From NCBI GenBank assembly GCA_036374995.1, contig DASUSS010000077.1, positions 2,352 through 66,351 on the forward strand: a stretch of 64,000 nt of DNA, written 5' to 3'. Of the stretch, positions 1 through 7,090 are shown in pieces. This stretch comes from Longimicrobiales bacterium. GTDB taxonomy: Bacteria > Gemmatimonadota > Gemmatimonadetes > Longimicrobiales > RSA9. The first letter of the stretch is position 1. Every line of letters starts with the position of its first letter. A program made the translations under genes and the position numbers. The notes under the pieces are model-generated. The model had not been told where the DNA came from. It saw nothing but the letters and a program-made list of their open reading frames with translations, and ran no database searches.

Positions 1-67
1 TCGCGATTTCTTCTCCGCGGCGGGCATGACGGCGTCCTCCTCGCTCTTCTTCCGGACCGCGCTGCGC

Positions 68-676
68 TCAGCCACCGTACCTCCTCGCGATCGCGATGCC
101 GAACCCGACTTCCAGCAGACCGAACCCGGCCGCCAGCCACCAGTCACCCCACGACCCCGGCGTGAACAGCGCGGCCGCGCCGAGCACCATGAAACAGAGT
201 CCCATGACCGGAACGATGCGCACGGAGAACGTGCCCGCCGTGGCCACCGCGGTTCCGTAGAGGAGCAGCCACGTGCCCGGAATCCGGTCGACGGCGCCTG
301 CCGAATACAGCGCGAGCGTGAGCGCGGCCCCCGCCGCGATCGGCGGCAGAAAGCTCAGCGCGAACTTGCGTCCCGGGCCGGCCAGCAGCGGCATCGCCGC
401 CCGGCGCGCCTTGCGCGCCATCGTGACCGCCGCGACTCCGATCGCCACCGCCGCCGCCCCGATCCATACGGCCAGCCAACGCTCCGCGTCGGGCTGCGCT
501 GCCGCGAGCGGCGCCGCTGCCAGCGCGATCACGCCCATCCCGACGCCGCCCCACCCGGGCACGGCCGTGAACGCGCCCGCCCGCTCCATCGTCTGCCGGA
601 TGTAGCGCAGGTCGCTGATCGCGCGATGGTGCAGCGCGATCGGTTCGTCGGGCGGGGGTACCGGTTCGGGTCTCAT
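68..676 (-). CDS. hypothetical integral membrane protein (several predicted TM helices)
   Basis: ORF track 68..793. Repeated hydrophobic helices (GVGMGVIALAAAPLAA, WLAVWIGAAAVAIGVAAV, LSFLPPIAAGAALTLALY, VMGLCFMVLGAAALF, WWLAAGFGLLEVGFGIAI). Start moved to the internal ATG at 676 (MRPEPV...) because a start at 793 would overlap the aroF leader and promoter. No family recognised. Confidence 0.55.
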   Translation of the reverse strand: MRPEPVPPPDEPIALHHRAISDLRYIRQTMERAGAFTAVPGWGGVGMGVIALAAAPLAAAQPDAERWLAVWIGAAAVAIGVAAVTMARKARRAAMPLLAGPGRKFALSFLPPIAAGAALTLALYSAGAVDRIPGTWLLLYGTAVATAGTFSVRIVPVMGLCFMVLGAAALFTPGSWGDWWLAAGFGLLEVGFGIAIARRYGG

Positions 677-756
677 GCCGGCCTGAGTATGGGGCTCGGT
701 CCAGGTTCTGTCAAGTACTTTATGATGCAAAGGATGTGCCTCGCGGGCCGCCGCCG

Positions 757-785
757 TTGACAGCGGGCGGGGAGGTACGTACCGT
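757..785 (+). promoter_or_regulatory. candidate sigma70-type promoter: TTGACA (757-762), 17-bp spacer, TACCGT (780-785)
   Basis: Perfect -35 hexamer, 17-bp spacer, -10 with T-A-n-n-n-T. The predicted TSS falls at or near the ATG at 792, so the leader ORF may be leaderless. The same architecture recurs upstream of several operons in this window. Confidence 0.4.
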
Positions 786-791
786 AGGCTC

Positions 792-875
792 ATGATACGC
801 CAGCGCCTGACCGCCGCCAGCTATTATTACGCGACCCGTGACACGGGCCGTGGGCGGCGGCGTCTGCGCGAATAG
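792..875 (+). CDS. candidate attenuator leader peptide, 27 aa, MIRQRLTAASYYYATRDTGRGRRRLRE (three consecutive Tyr codons)
   Basis: Read by hand: ATG 792, TAT TAT TAC at 822-830, TAG 873-875. Lies between the candidate promoter and an intrinsic terminator, immediately upstream of the aromatic/tyrosine biosynthesis operon. Confidence 0.55.
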   Translation: MIRQRLTAASYYYATRDTGRGRRRLRE

Positions 876-902
876 CGCAACCAGGCACCGGCAGCGCACG
901 AG

Positions 903-936
903 CGGCCCGTGGATCACCACGGGCCGTTTCTGTTTT
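903..936 (+). terminator. intrinsic terminator (attenuator) upstream of aroF
   Basis: 10-bp perfect GC-rich stem CGGCCCGTGG (903-912) / CCACGGGCCG (917-926), 4-nt loop ATCA, then TTTCTGTTTT (927-936). Located 33 nt before the aroF ATG. Confidence 0.7.
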
Positions 937-969
937 GTGCGCCCTGGATGGTAGCAAGGGAGGGACGTC

Positions 970-2022
970 ATGATCATCGTCACGAAGCCGGGCGTCACGG
1001 ACGCGGAGCTGGACCACATCCGGGAGCGTGTGGAGATGCAGGGGATGCGGACGCATGTCTCGCGGGGGGAGCAGCGGACGATCATCGGCTGCATCGGGGA
1101 CGAGACGGCACTGGGCGAGGTGGCGCTGCTGAGCCTGCCGGGGGTGGAGTCGGTGACGCCGATCCTGAAGCCGTACAAGCTGGCGGCGCGGGAGTTCACG
1201 GGCGGACCGAGCACGGTTCGGGTCGGCGATGCGGCGGGCACGGTGATCGGGGGCCGCGAGCTCGCGATCATCGCGGGCCCGTGCTCGGTGGAGCCGGGCG
1301 TGATGCTGCGCGAGACGGCGCACGCGGTGCGCGCGGCGGGGGCGGGGATGCTGCGGGGCGGTGCGTTCAAGCCTCGGACCTCGCCGTACGCGTTCCAGGG
1401 ACTGGGCGAGACGGCGCTGCGGATGCTGGTGGAGATCCGGGCGGAGACGGGTCTTCCGGTAGTGACGGAGGTGATGGACACGCGGCAGGTGGAGCTCGTC
1501 GCGGCGCATGCGGACGTGCTCCAGATCGGTGCGCGGAACATGCAGAACTACGCGCTGCTGTCGGAGGTGGGGAGGGTACAGCGGCCGGTGCTGCTGAAGC
1601 GCGGCATGTCGGCGACGCTGCAGGAGCTGCTGATGGCAGCGGAGTACATCATGGCGCAGGGCAATCGCGACGTGATCCTGTGCGAGCGGGGCATCCGCAC
1701 GTTTGAGACGGCGACGCGGAACACGTTCGATGCGGCGGCGGTTCCGGTGTTGAAGCGGGAGACGCACCTGCCGGTGATCGTGGATCCGAGTCATGCGGCG
1801 GGTCGGGCGGATCTGGTCGCGCCTCTGGCGTTCGCGGCGATTGCGGCGGGTGCGGACGGACTGATCGTGGAGGTGCATCCATCTCCGGAGCAGGCGCTCT
1901 CGGATGGGGATCAGTCGCTGTCGCTTGAGTCGTTCGCGGCGCTGATGGAGCGGTTGAGCGCCTTCGCGCAGGCCGCGGGGCGGGAGCTGGCAGCGCCCCG
2001 TTCGCGGGAGGCGGCCGCGTGA
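970..2022 (+). CDS. aroF: 3-deoxy-7-phosphoheptulonate (DAHP) synthase, type I-beta with N-terminal ferredoxin-like/ACT-like regulatory domain
   Basis: 350 aa. N-terminal [22 protein letters not shown]... regulatory domain followed by a KDO8PS/DAHPS I-beta core ([26 protein letters not shown]). RBS GGGAGGG at 958-964. Confidence 0.93.
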
Positions 2023-2315
2023 TGGAGCGCGACACGGCGGAGGCCTCGGAGCTGGGCCGTCTGCGCGGGGGGATCGAGCGCATCGATCGCGAGCTGATCC
2101 GGCTGATGGCGGAGCGGGTCGAGCTGGCGCGGCGGACGGGCGAGGTGAAGCGGGCGCTGGGGCTTCCCACGCTGGACCCCGGGCGTGAAGCGGAGGTCGT
2201 GCGCCGGGCGGGAGCACTGGCGCGTGAGGCCGGGCTCGGCGATGACGAGGTGCGGGCGATCTTCTGGCACCTGATCGGCCTGTCGCGCCGCGCGCAGTCC
2301 GGCGGGGCATCGTGA
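2022..2315 (+). CDS. chorismate mutase (AroQ class)
   Basis: About 97 aa helical protein, LRGGIERIDRELIRLMAERVELARRTGEVKR... typical AroQ. ATGA overlap with the aroF stop; the GTG at 2019 is an alternative start. Confidence 0.85.
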   Translation: MERDTAEASELGRLRGGIERIDRELIRLMAERVELARRTGEVKRALGLPTLDPGREAEVVRRAGALAREAGLGDDEVRAIFWHLIGLSRRAQSGGAS

Positions 2316-3199
2316 TGGAGCCGCAGTCCATGGCGATCATCGGCCTGGGCCTGATCGGCGGGTCTCTGGCCCGCGACGGCGCCGCGCTCGGGATGCGTGT
2401 CGCGGCCTACGATGCCGACGCCACGGCGTTGCATGCGGCGCTCGAGGAGGGCGTGATCGCGACCGCGCTGGACCCTTCGCTCGAGGGCGTCGAGGAAGTC
2501 GACGTGGTGGTCCTCGCGCTTCCGGTCACGGCAACCATCAAGGCGCTGCGGGCGGCGTCGGGGCGCCTGCGCCTGGCGCGGTGCATCACGGACGTTTGCA
2601 GCACGAAGCGCACGATCGTCGAGGCCGCACGCCATCTCGGGCTGGCGAGCCGGTTCATCGGGGGCCACCCACTCGCCGGGGGTCACCGCGCCGGGTGGGG
2701 TGCATCGCGCGCGGGCCTGTTCCACGGGGCCCGGGTCTACCTCTGTCCCGCAGACGATGACGCGGTCGCCGTGGCGGAACCTGTGGAACGGCTGTGGCGG
2801 GCGGTAGGCGGCGTGACGGAGATGATGAGCGCGAGCGAGCACGACCGCCTGCTGGCTTCGACGAGTCACCTGCCGCAGGTGGTCTCGACGGCGCTCGCGC
2901 GAGCGATCCTCGCCTCCGGCGTTTCTCTCGACCGGCTGGGCCCCGGCGGCCGCGACATGACGCGTCTCGCGCACAGCGCGGCCGCGATCTGGGCGCCGAT
3001 CGCGCTCCACAACGCGGATTTCCTCGGCGGTGCACTCGCCCTGATGGAGTCGGAGCTCGCACAGCTCCGCCACGCACTCTCGAACGCCGATGCCGATGCG
3101 GTTCGCCAGTTCTTCCAGCCGGGGCTTCAGTCGGTCGGTACCGAGGGCGGGGCGCCGCGAACGGCGGCGGCACGGCGAGGAACTCGCCGCGGAGCGTGA
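2315..3199 (+). CDS. tyrA: prephenate dehydrogenase
   Basis: N-terminal Rossmann motif IIGLGLIGGS and a conserved GGHPLAG segment. Translationally coupled to the chorismate mutase gene (TGATG overlap). Confidence 0.88.
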   Translation: MEPQSMAIIGLGLIGGSLARDGAALGMRVAAYDADATALHAALEEGVIATALDPSLEGVEEVDVVVLALPVTATIKALRAASGRLRLARCITDVCSTKRTIVEAARHLGLASRFIGGHPLAGGHRAGWGASRAGLFHGARVYLCPADDDAVAVAEPVERLWRAVGGVTEMMSASEHDRLLASTSHLPQVVSTALARAILASGVSLDRLGPGGRDMTRLAHSAAAIWAPIALHNADFLGGALALMESELAQLRHALSNADADAVRQFFQPGLQSVGTEGGAPRTAAARRGTRRGA

Positions 3200-3203
3200 C
3201 GGT

Positions 3204-3240
3204 GGGCGGGATCCCGCAGTTGCCACTTCCCGCCCTTTCC
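3204..3240 (+). terminator. possible terminator hairpin after tyrA
   Basis: GGGCGGGA (3204-3211) pairs with TCCCGCCC (3228-3235), followed by TTTCC. The loop is long (16 nt) and the T-tract short. Confidence 0.3.
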
Positions 3241-3357
3241 GCCATCTTCACTGGAGCAACGGCTTTCCCCGCCGGGGGCGTTTCCACCGGCACTCCCTCC
3301 GTTGTGCCGCACCGCCGCGCGGAATGCAGCGGTGCCTCGTCTTCCGCCATCGATCTC

Positions 3358-4371
3358 ATGCGAAGGCTTCGCCCATTACCGCTGCTGGTAACCGCGTGCC
3401 TCCTGGCGCCGCCCGCCGTATCCGCGCAGGAGCAGCCGGTCGACCGTCGGTCCCGCCAGCAGATTGCGGACTCGGCCGAGGTCGCGGCGCTCTCGCGCAA
3501 GCTCGTGAAGGGCCTGCGCACGGACAGCGCGCGCGCCGCGGCGATCTACGAATGGGTCGCTCGCAACGTGCGCTACGACGCGCAGTCCTTCTTCCGCGGG
3601 GGAGACGGCTACGAGAAGGCGGAGGAAGTGTATCGGCATCGCATGGCTCTGTGCGGCGGCTACGTCGCACTGTACGAGCGGATCGCGCGCGAGGCGGGCA
3701 TGCGTGCGGTCCCGATCACCGGGTATGCGAAGGGCGTGGACTACCGGTTCGGCCGCTCGACGAGGAAGCCGAACCACGCCTGGCTCGCCATGAGCATCGG
3801 GGGCGAGTGGCGGCTCATCGATCCGACGTGGGGCGCCGGCGTGATCAACGGCCGCGCGTTCGAGCCGAGCTTCAGCTGGGACTACTTCCTGGTCTCGCCC
3901 GAGGAGCTTATCCTCTCGCACTACCCCGAGGACGCCGCGTGGCAGCTGCTCGACCGGCCCCTGGCGCGACGGGATTTCGAGCGGATGCAGCTCGTCCCGC
4001 GCACGCTGCTGCGCGTCGGCTTCGAGCCGGAGGTGATCCGCGCGACCGCGCTGACTCCGGGCGTGAGGGATTTTCCGGCCGTGGGCGCGGCCGGCAGCGG
4101 TGTCCGGGTGTTGCACGCACCTGTCGCGGGGACGCTGCCCGCCTCCACGCCCGTGACGATCGACGTGGTCTGGCCGGGCGCTGCCGAAGTGGTTCTCGTG
4201 AGCAATGGCGTCTGGACGAAGCTGAATCGCGTTGGCGACCGTTTCCGTGGCGCGGGCGTTGCAGCCGGGACCTCGGTGTACGTCGTCGGACGAACCGCCG
4301 GCGCCTCGCAGCCGTACCAGACGCTGCTGCACTACCGCGTGGCGGGCGGCGGGCGGGCCTCGTCGAAGTAG
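3358..4371 (+). CDS. secreted transglutaminase-like (Cys-His-Asp) domain protein
   Basis: Signal peptide MRRLRPLPLLVTACLLAPPAVSAQ. Core ALCGGYVALYERIAREAG...NHAWLAMSIGGEWRLIDPTWG matches the transglutaminase-like cysteine protease fold. Start chosen at the in-frame ATG at 3358 rather than the track start at 2794, which overlaps tyrA. Confidence 0.8.
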   Translation: MRRLRPLPLLVTACLLAPPAVSAQEQPVDRRSRQQIADSAEVAALSRKLVKGLRTDSARAAAIYEWVARNVRYDAQSFFRGGDGYEKAEEVYRHRMALCGGYVALYERIAREAGMRAVPITGYAKGVDYRFGRSTRKPNHAWLAMSIGGEWRLIDPTWGAGVINGRAFEPSFSWDYFLVSPEELILSHYPEDAAWQLLDRPLARRDFERMQLVPRTLLRVGFEPEVIRATALTPGVRDFPAVGAAGSGVRVLHAPVAGTLPASTPVTIDVVWPGAAEVVLVSNGVWTKLNRVGDRFRGAGVAAGTSVYVVGRTAGASQPYQTLLHYRVAGGGRASSK

Positions 4372-4453
4372 CCCGGACGCCTGTCGCGTTCGCGCGCGGC
4401 CGCACGTTCAACAGGTTGGTGGCGCTGCCCGGCGCCGGAGATCCCCGGAGATC

Positions 4454-5032
4454 ATGCACGCATACGTCCGCACCCCGTTTCTCGTTCTGGCTCTTGCGAC
4501 CGCGGCGTGCGACCGCGTGCCGGGTGATCCGCTCGACACCGCGGAGGCCGCCGTCCTGCTCGAGCGCATGCGCCTCGCGGCGGCGGGCGATGCGCCGCTG
4601 CCGGGGCTCGGCGAGCTGGCCGACCTCACTGCCGGCCGGGTCGCCGCCGAGCACCACGAGCTCGTCACTGCCTATCGTACGCTGCGCTCCGCCGCCGACG
4701 CGGCCCTGCTCACGGGCGACCCGGAGCGGGCGCAGGACGCCGTCACCGCCGCACGCGATGCGCAGCTGCGCGTCGTGCTCGCCGGTCTCGGGTCGCCTGG
4801 TGTCGCCGAACTGATTGCGCAGGCACAGCACCGTGTGCGTCAGCTGGAGCCTCGGCTCCACGATGGGTTCGACCACGTCGCACGGCTCGGGCAGATGAAT
4901 GCCTCGGCCGACGACATGCTCAAGCGCGCCCGCGCACGGTTACTTCAGGGCGATGACGTCGGCGCCCTCGACCTCTCGGCGCACGCCATCGATCTGCTCA
5001 ACGCAGTGGACGCGGCTCTCGACGAACAGTAG
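4454..5032 (+). CDS. hypothetical helical lipoprotein
   Basis: MHAYVRTPFLVLALATAAC lipobox-like signal. The rest is Ala/Leu-rich and helical. No family recognised. Start at the in-frame ATG at 4454. Confidence 0.6.
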   Translation: MHAYVRTPFLVLALATAACDRVPGDPLDTAEAAVLLERMRLAAAGDAPLPGLGELADLTAGRVAAEHHELVTAYRTLRSAADAALLTGDPERAQDAVTAARDAQLRVVLAGLGSPGVAELIAQAQHRVRQLEPRLHDGFDHVARLGQMNASADDMLKRARARLLQGDDVGALDLSAHAIDLLNAVDAALDEQ

Positions 5033-5705
5033 ACAGCGTATCAGGCGGCAGGGTGCGTGTGGTGTCGGGCCGCGCGGGCCGCGGCTGTGGCGGGCGGGCG
5101 GGCGTCGTCTGCGGCAGCCGTTCGGTCGACTGCCCGAGCTGCTGGGCCAGCAGCTGGCGCGCGCGCGTCAGGTGGGCGTCGGCCATCGCGCGGATGTCGG
5201 TCAGCAGCGTGCGGATATCCGGAGTCGCCGCACCGGGGATGAGCTGCTGGTCCAACCGGTCGAGAAGCAGCCGGTGCGACTCGACCTCTGCCCGGACGAA
5301 CGGCAGCTCGAAATCCGGTCCCGCCAGGTTCTCCAGTCCGGAGTGCGCCATCCGTACCGTGTTCTCCAGCTCCTGCGCATCGGCGCCGGGTGTGAGTGTT
5401 GCGCCGCGCAGCCGCGCAACGGAATCGAGCGTGCCGATGAGCGCGCGGTGATCGGCGGCGACGGTCTGCGCATACTGGCGCATGGTCGTACCTGCCGCAC
5501 GCTGCGCGGCTAGCTGAGCGAACTCCACTTCCGCCATGCTCACCGCGCGGACCTGTGAGAGCAGCGCAGCCGTCGCCGCCGCATCTTCCACCGCGACGGA
5601 ATCGGCAGCGGCCTCCCTCGCGATGTCCTCGCCACCCCCGCACGCCGCGGCGAGTAACACCGTCAGCAGCAGCCCACGCTTCTCGCGCATCGATTCGCTC
5701 CTCAT
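4998..5705 (-). CDS. DUF4142-like lipoprotein
   Basis: MRSESMREKRGLLLTVLLAAACGG lipobox. Body (MAEVEFAQLAAQRAAGTTMRQYAQTVAADHRALIGTL..., second repeat ELPFVRAEVESHRLLLDRL) resembles the two-repeat DUF4142 family. Alternative start at 5690. Confidence 0.7.
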   Translation of the reverse strand: MRSESMREKRGLLLTVLLAAACGGGEDIAREAAADSVAVEDAAATAALLSQVRAVSMAEVEFAQLAAQRAAGTTMRQYAQTVAADHRALIGTLDSVARLRGATLTPGADAQELENTVRMAHSGLENLAGPDFELPFVRAEVESHRLLLDRLDQQLIPGAATPDIRTLLTDIRAMADAHLTRARQLLAQQLGQSTERLPQTTPARPPQPRPARPDTTRTLPPDTLSTVRREPRPLR

Positions 5706-5786
5706 AGTTTGTCGTCCTTCGGCACCGTACGTCGGCCGGGGTCGGACGGCAAGCTGCGCGCCCGCGGAAAGCGCGCGACGGGCGGC

Positions 5787-5815
5787 TTGCCTCGCCTCTG
5801 ACCCCGCGCTATACT
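5787..5815 (+). promoter_or_regulatory. candidate promoter: TTGCCT, 17-bp spacer, TATACT
   Basis: -35 at 5787-5792 and a near-consensus -10 TATACT at 5810-5815 with a 17-bp spacer, 136 nt upstream of gltA. Confidence 0.45.
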
Positions 5816-5950
5816 CGCCCCGCTGGTCGCTGTACCGCCCGCATCCGTGAGGGGCTGGCGTCCTCACCGTAATCGGCAGAGGGGCGGCCCCTTTTTGCAT
5901 GGCTGTCGTCTTGCATCGCACCCCGGCTGCACGAGCGAGATCATCACGGA

Positions 5951-7090
5951 ATGTCGACGAGCAACAAGGGTCTGGAAGGCGTCGTCATTGGTCAGACGGC
6001 GATCAGCCGTGTCGATGGTGAAGCCGGACGCCTGATCTACGGCGGGTACCCGATCGAGGAGCTCGCGGAGCACTCGACGTTCGAGCAGGTGTGTCATCTC
6101 CTCTGGTACGGCGACCTGCCGGATCCGAAGCAGCTGGAGGCGCTGCGCACGCGGCTGTCGGCGGCGCTGGCCGTCGACGGACGCGTGCTGGATGTGGTTC
6201 GCAGCGTGGCCGCCGGCAGCCATCCCATGGCGACGCTGCGCACCGCCGTCTCGGCACTGTCCGCGACGGATCCGGATGCGGAGGACATGTCGGCGGACGC
6301 GAACGATCGGAAAGCCGTCCGTCTGACCGCGCAGACGATCACGCTCACAGCGGCGATCGAGCGCGTGCGCAGCGGCCGCGAGCCGGTTCCACCCCGCCCC
6401 GATCTGTCTCTCGCGGCGAACCTGCTCCACATGATGAAGGGCGAGCCATCCGACGACCTGGCCGAGCGGATCATCGATGCCGCGCTCATCCTGCATGCGG
6501 AGCACGGGATGAACGCATCGACGTTCTCGGCGCGGGTCACGGCCAGCACGCTCGCAGACATGCACTCGGCCGTGACGGCCGCGATCGGTACGCTCAAGGG
6601 ACCGCTCCACGGCGGCGCGAACGAGCAGGTGATGCGGATGCTGCTGCGCATCGACCGGCCGGAGAATGCGGCGCAGTGGGTTCGTGATGCGCTCGGCCGC
6701 GGCGAGAGGATCATGGGCTTCGGCCATCGAGTGTATCGTACGCTCGATCCGCGGGCACCGATCCTGAAACGGCTGGCCGAGCAGCTGCTCGGCCAGGGTG
6801 GCGACACGCGCTGGCTCGAGATCTCCGAGATCATCCAGGACGTGATGCGCGAGGAGATGGACCGGAAGGGCAGGAAGGTCTATCCGAATGTCGACTTCTT
6901 CAGTGCGTCGGTCTACTACACGCTCGGCATCCCGCTGGACCTGTTCACGAACCTGTTCGCATGCGCACGCATGGCCGGCTGGACCGCGCATGTGAAGGAG
7001 CAGCTGACGGACAACCGCCTGATCCGGCCGAAGGCCGAGTATGTCGGCCCGCAGGACCGCTCGATCCCGGCCGCCGTCCAGCGCGGCTGA
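5951..7090 (+). CDS. gltA: citrate synthase (about 380-aa type)
   Basis: 379 aa. GLEGVVIGQTAIS, HAEHGMNAST, GFGHRVY, and catalytic His/Asp context typical of citrate/2-methylcitrate synthases. Confidence 0.92.
   Translation: MSTSNKGLEGVVIGQTAISRVDGEAGRLIYGGYPIEELAEHSTFEQVCHLLWYGDLPDPKQLEALRTRLSAALAVDGRVLDVVRSVAAGSHPMATLRTAVSALSATDPDAEDMSADANDRKAVRLTAQTITLTAAIERVRSGREPVPPRPDLSLAANLLHMMKGEPSDDLAERIIDAALILHAEHGMNASTFSARVTASTLADMHSAVTAAIGTLKGPLHGGANEQVMRMLLRIDRPENAAQWVRDALGRGERIMGFGHRVYRTLDPRAPILKRLAEQLLGQGGDTRWLEISEIIQDVMREEMDRKGRKVYPNVDFFSASVYYTLGIPLDLFTNLFACARMAGWTAHVKEQLTDNRLIRPKAEYVGPQDRSIPAAVQRG

Follow-up and report, generated by a model that had tools for sequence, protein, structure and literature searches.

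The aroF-CM-tyrA operon and its leader region

We analysed a 64-kb stretch of contig DASUSS010000077.1 from a Longimicrobiales bacterium (assembly GCA_036374995.1). This whole stretch is called the window below, and all coordinates refer to it. Our subject is a candidate leader-peptide transcription attenuator with tyrosine codons, which precedes a three-gene operon on the plus strand. The first gene, aroF (970–2022), encodes a type I-beta 3-deoxy-D-arabino-heptulosonate 7-phosphate (DAHP) synthase with an N-terminal ferredoxin-like regulatory domain (PF00793, 9e-82; PF18152, 1e-21; NF006421, 5e-145). It is followed by a gene for a chorismate mutase (CM) of the AroQ type II (2019–2315; PF01817, 5e-22) and by tyrA, which encodes a prephenate/arogenate dehydrogenase (2312–3199; PF02153, 1e-28; PF20463, 2e-13). 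The CM start overlaps the aroF stop, and the tyrA start overlaps the CM stop. The translation start of aroF is preceded by the Shine-Dalgarno (SD) sequence GGGAGGG at 958–964, 5 nt 5′ of the ATG at 970.

Upstream of the operon, on the same strand, a -35 hexamer TTGACA (757–762) is followed after 17 nt by a -10 hexamer TACCGT of the TANNNT type (780–785). Only 6 nt separate the -10 hexamer from an ATG at 792, which opens an open reading frame (ORF) of 27 codons plus stop (MIRQRLTAASYYYATRDTGRGRRRLRE, 792–875). This leader ORF contains three consecutive tyrosine codons, TAT TAT TAC, at 822–830, and neither phenylalanine nor tryptophan codons. There is no SD sequence 5′ of the ATG at 792, and the first 7 nt of an RNA that begins at 792 are unpaired in the predicted fold. 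As an alternative reading of the tyrosine codons we considered TATTAT (822–827) as a -10 box. It was rejected, as no -35 box lies at a suitable distance and the relatives described below have TAC, TTC or TGG at this place. Moreover, the aromatic run of the relatives lies in a conserved reading frame opened by the leaderless ATG.

The leader ORF is followed by a hairpin with a T-rich tract. The terminator scan finds a 13-pair stem at 900–929 with the 4-nt loop ATCA, and the tract TTTCTGTTTT at 927–936; 33 nt lie between the end of the tract and the aroF ATG. Because the 5′ neighbour of the leader is a divergent gene, the hairpin at 900–936 is not the end signal of a preceding gene. Four regions can be distinguished by analogy with known attenuators. 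Region 3 (900–912) and region 4 (917–929) are the 5′ and 3′ arms of the terminator. Region 2 (842–852, CACGGGCCGTG) begins 11 nt past the last tyrosine codon and duplicates bases 918–927 of the terminator 3′ arm. It can therefore act as the 5′ arm of an antiterminator, with region 3 common to both structures. There are exactly two copies of the 10-mer CACGGGCCGT in the 64 kb, at 842–851 and 918–927, where 0.4 would be expected (both strands, whole window), and the antiterminator duplex of 842–851 with 902–911 has a predicted energy of -22.4 kcal/mol. Region 1 (830–839) is the 5′ arm of a local hairpin that sequesters region 2: the minimum free energy (MFE) fold pairs it with 843–852, and it would lie under a ribosome stalled at the tyrosine codons.

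RNA 792–940 folds at -80.4 kcal/mol (z = -4.7 relative to shuffles). The fold holds the terminator together with a structure that pairs 812–839 with 843–862. Within the latter, the complementary segments CGCCGCC (812–818) and GGCGGCG (853–859) and the segments CCCG (835–838) and CGGG (844–847) are both present, and the MFE fold uses these pairings or a shifted register of the GGC repeats.

Much of this had been proposed in an earlier reading of the same DNA made from its letters, which we refer to as the original prediction. The TTGACA-17-TACCGT promoter at 757–785, the 27-codon ORF with its three tyrosine codons and the exact 10-mer copy were found just as that reading had described them. The strong intrinsic terminator it had named was recovered with a stem of 13 pairs, and the gene identities, including the N-terminal regulatory domain of AroF, agree with the Pfam and NF matches. 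Its two proposed sequestering pairings both exist in the window; conservation in relatives extends to the inner hairpin and not to the outer CGCCGCC/GGCGGCG pairing.

Conservation of the leader in Gemmatimonadota

Relatives were collected by an AroF protein scan with one genome per species. This resulted in 80 loci (L001–L080), all from Gemmatimonadota, or 81 with the window; the closest AroF proteins, with 80–84% amino-acid identity, come from Longimicrobium and Longimicrobiaceae. A soil-living member of Longimicrobiales is the most likely source of the window. Most of the 80 loci share one layout, in which a short Tyr-, Phe- or Trp-rich ORF is followed by a GC-rich hairpin and a T tract. Heuristic criteria were passed by 56 sequences, the window counted, and these formed the basis of the MAFFT alignment A1 and of the covariance model R1. 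Searching with R1 added 10 further loci at E ≤ 1.5e-7, with partial matches in 5 others. A conserved short ORF with an aromatic run and covarying pairings, which the original prediction had suggested looking for in relatives, is thus present as part of the full element in about 66 of the 81 aroF loci (56 heuristic and 10 by R1), from two orders of the phylum. The loci without the element have aroF within a longer operon or a different upstream region. R1 matches the window once, at 792–935 with 96 bits, and no second credible match was found there. At least four aromatic residues within eight occur in the short ORF of 77% of the 81 loci, compared with 0.7% of dinucleotide shuffles.

The promoter is conserved together with the ORF. 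Across the family, TTGACA-like -35 boxes lie 17–18 nt upstream of the -10 box, at the same relative position as in the window, and 47 of the 62 leader loci with a called promoter match TTGACA at five or more of six positions. The gap between the -10 box and the ATG is 5–8 nt in 39 of the 49 loci with at least four of six -35 matches. Longer gaps are found mostly at loci with two adjacent ATGs. SD-like sequences are far commoner at the aroF starts of the family than at the leader starts. This conserved promoter-to-ATG geometry suggests that the leader mRNA is leaderless and starts at or next to A792, in line with the leaderless or nearly leaderless mRNA of the original prediction.

Both alternative structures are preserved in the alignment of 56 sequences. 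The terminator stem is 92.7% paired, with 36–55% in controls in which the pairing was slid along the alignment. In 137 alignment cells both sides of a terminator pair have changed, compared with 51.5 in shuffles, a value reached by none of 500 shuffles. The antiterminator (842–851:902–911 transferred to the alignment) is 75.9% paired, with 26–53% in slid controls; here 50 cells have changed on both sides, compared with 32 in shuffles, again reached by 0 of 500. The changes extend over three regions: a CGT in region 3 goes with ACG in regions 2 and 4, and a TCC goes with GGA or GGG in both. Such three-way covariation is what an antiterminator predicts. RNAalifold applied to the whole alignment recovers the terminator only, and the alternative pairings were therefore tested explicitly.

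Two tests that are independent of the alignment led to the same result. RNAduplex located the strongest partner for the terminator 5′ arm 9–12 nt past the last aromatic codon at most loci, with a mean z of -2.2 relative to shuffled arms. This spacing matches how far a ribosome extends past its A site, and thus fits the attenuation model well. Furthermore, leaders bind the terminator arm of their own locus more strongly than dissimilar arms of other loci, by 3.3 kcal/mol, in 86% of loci. When the pairings of arms and leaders were permuted across loci, the observed mean was reached in 0 of 10,000 permutations.

The sequestering structure is preserved in part. The inner hairpin (830–839:843–852) reaches 67% pairing on the alignment, and 7 of its 9 pairs show changes on both sides. 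In 44 of 56 loci a small GC hairpin contains or adjoins the stop codon of the leader (865–879 in the window; GCGCG-GCTGA-CGCGC in L003 and L006, for example). We did not retain this hairpin as an element, since its energy is no better than that of shuffles (-6.6 and -6.2 kcal/mol).

Folding of the RNA was also predicted with ribosome masks. Without a ribosome, the nascent RNA 792–912 has region 2 held by region 1 and region 3 free. When a mask stands for a ribosome on the first, second or third tyrosine codon, an 11-bp helix 842–852:902–912 appears in the nascent RNA. Under the stall mask, region 3 pairs upstream in 49 of the 56 family loci. For the full-length RNA without a ribosome, the terminator conformer has -80.0 kcal/mol and the antiterminator conformer -61.0 kcal/mol, and the default state is thus the terminator.

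Operon types were assigned with tblastn and Pfam checks of the downstream genes, and the codons of the aromatic run differ between them. The run codons are 83% Tyr, 16% Phe and 1% Trp at the 24 loci with aroF-CM-tyrA, and Trp is present in the run at a single locus. At the 10 loci with aroF-CM they are 67% Tyr and 33% Phe, and Trp is absent (0%, 0 loci). At the 28 loci with aroF alone, the proportions are 46% Tyr, 36% Phe and 17% Trp, with Trp in the run at 21 loci. The association of codon mix with operon type has a chi-square p-value of 3e-10, calculated without a correction for phylogeny. The gene next to aroF in the aroF-alone loci that were checked (L020, L057 and L062) is a convergent argH, and in the aroF-CM loci checked the gene that follows CM is convergent as well. 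One exception is L013, where aroF-CM stands behind a Tyr-only leader.

A neighbour-joining tree of AroF places monocistronic aroF genes with Trp-containing leaders in at least four positions besides a deep aroF-alone clade, namely L073 (inside an aroF-CM clade), L008, L038 and the L044–L080 group. The clade-mates of these nested loci have aroF-CM or aroF-CM-tyrA operons and leaders without Trp. The association of Trp-containing leaders with aroF alone is therefore not one inherited event, and it suggests that the sensor codons were re-tuned repeatedly in evolution.

Rare codons are also preferred in the leaders. Family-wide, TAT accounts for 39% of leader Tyr codons compared with 8.6% in the adjacent aroF (p = 4e-14), and TTT for 48% of leader Phe codons compared with 16% (p = 1e-9). 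The three operon genes of the window use TAC in 6 of 6 cases, and the leader has TAT twice. Both Tyr codons are decoded by one tRNA; the bias toward rare codons may make decoding slower, or may leave the sensor stretch free of structure. Judged from the leaderless geometry and from the way in which Tyr and Phe codons vary synonymously with a bias to rare ones, the leader ORF is probably translated. Downstream of the aromatic run, third codon positions show no less conservation than first positions (0.75 and 0.74), which indicates that the tail is constrained as RNA and not as peptide. The peptide tail is wholly different among sequence classes (ATRDTGRGRRR, RLPHGTQEAAARV and TPSRMGHG), and the aromatic run and the RNA pairings persist.

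Two loci of the collection showed departures from the common arrangement. L001, a Longimicrobium metagenome-assembled genome (MAG), has tyrS (4872–6155; PF00579 and a SYY C-terminal domain) between CM and tyrA, under the Tyr-rich leader MSIHARASYYRGYRYYR... As only this one of the 80 loci has tyrS in the operon, we do not regard it as a general feature. L007 matches R1 at 974–1109 with 50.9 bits and keeps promoter and terminator, and its leader ORF reads just ATG ATA GAG TAA, with no aromatic run. This leader is either a decayed attenuator or an error of MAG assembly.

The genes around the operon add some context. The divergent 5′ neighbour, on the minus strand, encodes a membrane protein and has its ATG at 676–674. 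It has a promoter of its own (TTGACA at 714–709, a 17-nt spacer and CATACT at 691–686) that ends 9 nt before this ATG. Its mRNA, too, would have almost no 5′ untranslated region, and this organism may often have short leaders or none. On the 3′ side, a gene for a secreted transglutaminase-like protein (3358–4371, plus strand; signal peptide, PF01841) starts 158 nt past the tyrA stop, with no strong terminator evident between the two. A long ORF at 3090–4814 is probably spurious, because its frame is wrong by GC content at third codon positions. A tRNA scan found no tRNA genes in the window, no Rfam family reached its gathering score anywhere in it, and scans of the window and of the flanks of the 80 loci detected no other leaderless short-ORF attenuators. 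Finally, the ferredoxin-like domain of AroF would add feedback control at the protein level, a role assigned on the basis of Thermotoga-type DAHP synthases.

Proposed mechanism and rival explanations

We consider it likely that the element attenuates transcription through a leader peptide and its ribosome, with charged tRNA-Tyr as the signal sensed. Transcription would start at or next to A792 and yield a leaderless mRNA, whose 27-codon leader a ribosome could enter at once. With ample Tyr-tRNA, the ribosome would pass 822–830 and region 1 would re-pair with region 2 behind it. Region 3 would then be free to pair with region 4, and RNA polymerase would stop at 927–936, before aroF. When Tyr-tRNA is scarce, the ribosome would stall on the tyrosine codons and cover region 1, with region 2 just past its leading edge. 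Region 2 would pair with region 3 as soon as this is made, no terminator would form, and aroF, CM and tyrA would be transcribed, aroF then being translated from its own SD sequence. The original prediction had likewise applied the logic of trp/phe/his-type attenuation to tyrosine codons, and the conservation, the covariation, the spacing, the folding under masks, the rare codons and the match of codon mix to operon type support it, as does the tyrS of L001 under its Tyr-rich leader. In the comparison of conformers for which it had called, the nascent fold flips to the antiterminator under the mask and the full-length RNA does not.

Several observations weigh against this mechanism. For the full-length RNA with a ribosome at the third tyrosine codon, the terminator conformer (-54.0 kcal/mol) is still thermodynamically favoured over the antiterminator conformer (-44.6 kcal/mol). 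Read-through must therefore rest on kinetics, with the antiterminator in place before region 4 exists; the same is assumed for classic attenuators. The antiterminator is predicted in the nascent RNA even without a ribosome in 34 of 56 loci, and the off state there would need a translating ribosome and local refolding behind it. Conservation of the 1:2 structure is partial: its outer helices (812–822:853–862) are about 50% paired on the family alignment, which makes the outer helix specific to the window. The leader stop codon lies about 20 nt past region 2, so that a ribosome waiting there would not cover region 2. The window's run of three tyrosine codons is the shortest in the family. The family sequences are mostly from MAGs, and the shuffle statistics carry no correction for phylogeny. 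The sequencing runs that carry the window sequence are soil and rhizosphere metagenome DNA, with no RNA runs among them, and the transcription start site, a short terminated transcript, termination in vivo and a response to tyrosine are all predicted from sequence. Finally, the sole tested relative of the idea, the aroR leader upstream of aroF in Corynebacterium glutamicum, showed transcription unchanged by the supply of tyrosine (PMC11802643).

Some of these points would also suit a switch in which the leader ORF acts without intrinsic termination. Stalling might then act on the access of Rho, on the stability of the mRNA or on translation of aroF, with the hairpin as a mere processing or stability signal. 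The persistence of the terminator under the stall mask and the lack of RNA runs speak for such a switch, as does a subgroup of loci (L022, L047, L051, L054, L068 and L073, for example) with a poor T tract such as CGCGTCGTTT after the hairpin. The window and most loci, however, have a textbook terminator with a GC-rich stem of 10–13 bp, a 4-nt loop and a T tract, and the covarying competitor pairs exactly with the terminator 5′ arm. Control of aroF translation by the hairpin meets a further obstacle, because the aroF SD sequence lies beyond it and cannot be sequestered by its structure. Overall, we find a switch without termination unlikely. We are more doubtful still of a leader peptide with its own function, or of a terminator controlled by a protein or a trans-acting RNA, with aromatic codons that are no sensor. 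Trans-acting leader peptides do exist, such as peTrpL (PMC7298713). Among class-A loci, 21 of 22 preserve the register between the reading frame of the ORF and region 2, and this class has a recurrent basic tail, GRGRRR(M/L)R. Yet this tail is replaced entirely in other classes that keep the aromatic run and the RNA pairings, and the conservation of its third codon positions points to a constraint on RNA. The Tyr and Phe codons also vary synonymously and the mix of Tyr, Phe and Trp tracks the operon, which a peptide of fixed function would not show.

An attenuator could also be real without being specific for tyrosine, responding to translation speed or starvation in general, or to Phe and Tyr jointly through downstream effects. 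Any stall before 842 gives the same structural outcome, and the Phe-Tyr-Phe leader of aroR responds to phenylalanine and not to tyrosine (PMC11802643). Against this, the window leader has three tyrosine codons without Phe or Trp in front of an operon that ends in tyrA, and Trp and Phe codons appear in the family where the operon lacks tyrA or CM. A lack of tyrosine specificity thus appears very improbable to us. That a short ORF, a terminator and a repeat came together by accident in a GC-rich intergenic region is scarcely credible. It is true that at least three aromatic residues within eight occur in some short ORF in 8.9% of dinucleotide-shuffled upstream regions, and the run of three tyrosines taken alone is weak evidence. 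Conservation of the architecture in 66 of 81 loci over two orders, the covarying pairings and the 10-mer that occurs only twice in 64 kb, each time within the element, speak against coincidence, which the comparative data in effect already refute. A tyrosine-sensing attenuator is the reading that we retain.

Relation to known systems and implications

Leader-peptide attenuation is textbook knowledge for Trp, Phe, His, Leu, Thr and Ile/Val. In the enterobacterial leaders trpL, pheL, hisL, leuL, thrL and ilvL, a short ORF carries codons for the end product in tandem, antiterminator and terminator hairpins exclude each other, a 1:2 hairpin sequesters the antiterminator arm, and the position of the ribosome decides between the structures. 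The element described here shares the tandem product codons and the exclusive hairpins, and a decision by ribosome position is proposed for it; its 1:2 hairpin is clear in the window and only partly preserved in the family. It differs in that Tyr would be sensed, for which neither Rfam 15 nor the literature searched offered a member of this class, in that its mRNA would be leaderless and not SD-led, and in having no sequence similarity to the Rfam leader families: no family of Rfam 15, the Trp, Phe, His, Leu and Thr leaders included, matches a segment overlapping 757–969 at E ≤ 10. It further differs in that its ORF extends across region 2 to a stop codon some 20 nt beyond; a ribosome at this stop would leave region 2 uncovered, in contrast to E. 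coli trpL.

The closest known system is the aroR-aroF attenuator of C. glutamicum. Its leader peptide has the motif Phe-Tyr-Phe upstream of aroF (Neshat et al. 2014, as cited in PMC11802643, PMC4046766, PMC3890552 and PMC7356990), and transcription increases under limitation of phenylalanine and not of tyrosine (PMC11802643). Both systems place a leader peptide with aromatic codons before a DAHP synthase gene and use transcription attenuation. They differ in the Tyr-only run of the window, in the Tyr-branch genes CM and tyrA within its operon and in phylum; the peptides look unrelated, with aroR set apart by its published motif and its response to Phe. Attenuators of C. glutamicum are reportedly also found on leaderless transcripts. 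The transcript of the ilvBNC attenuator is leaderless (PMC11857589).

A second element upstream of aroF is the uORFC-13-1 motif of Acholeplasma, a predicted Phe upstream ORF (uORF) with its own promoter before an intrinsic terminator (PMC8632094). Like the window element, it combines a uORF, a promoter and a terminator before aroF, with sensing of an aromatic amino acid through translation speed proposed. Unlike it, the motif has a ribosome-binding site and a U run that codes for Phe, is AT-rich, belongs to Mollicutes and is computational only; Rfam gave no match to the window element. Among other modes of RNA control, the known one for tyrosine is the T-box, whose Tyr leaders precede tyrS and aromatic genes in Firmicutes; no RNA element was detected for tyrosine genes in a comparative analysis of Actinobacteria (PMC1262725). 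Charging of tRNA-Tyr is the signal and the choice between terminator and antiterminator the output in a Tyr T-box, as proposed here. A T-box, however, reads uncharged tRNA directly by RNA-RNA pairing and without translation, whereas the conserved feature here is an ORF. We could also reject a T-box identity directly, because no T-box covariance model matched positions 1–6000 at E ≤ 10.

The E. coli aroF-tyrA operon resembles that of the window in coupling a Tyr-linked DAHP synthase with tyrA, and its control is by a repressor. This is TyrR, a DNA-binding protein, and we know of no leader peptide established for the operon. Tyr-tRNA-dependent attenuation was merely hypothesised there (Camakaris et al. 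1980, as cited in PMC2659441 and PMC8632094).

The original prediction had named no described attenuator of this kind. This stands for a Tyr-only run and for the phylum, as the literature searched, subscription-only papers aside, contains neither an attenuator with a Tyr-only run nor one in Gemmatimonadota. A broader form of the claim has to be qualified, because the aroR attenuator and the Acholeplasma uORF motif exist. Somewhat less firmly than for the mechanism, we favour the view that this is the first tyrosine-specific leader-peptide attenuator, in a phylum-wide leaderless family of Gemmatimonadota whose codons have been re-tuned repeatedly to the operon product. With Tyr only for aroF-CM-tyrA, Tyr and Phe for aroF-CM, and Tyr, Phe and Trp for aroF alone, the family would form a natural sensor of modular design that reads more than one amino acid. 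The mechanism itself is not new and no mechanistic principle is added; what is new is the amino acid sensed, the phylum and a family whose codon mix tracks operon content.

A tyrosine version would fill a gap in leader-peptide attenuation, since we found none described. Gemmatimonadota are abundant in soil and, to our knowledge, genetically almost unstudied. If our interpretation is true, the Tyr-codon attenuator would also be the first cis-regulatory RNA element described for the phylum, as far as the literature was searched. The same scaffold with Tyr, Tyr+Phe and Tyr+Phe+Trp mixes would offer a natural experiment on how the identity, number and rarity of codons affect the specificity and gain of an attenuator. 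The covariance model R1 can improve the annotation of Gemmatimonadota genomes, and the geometry TTGACA-17-TANNNT-6/7-ATG provides a working model of promoters and leaderless starts for the phylum.

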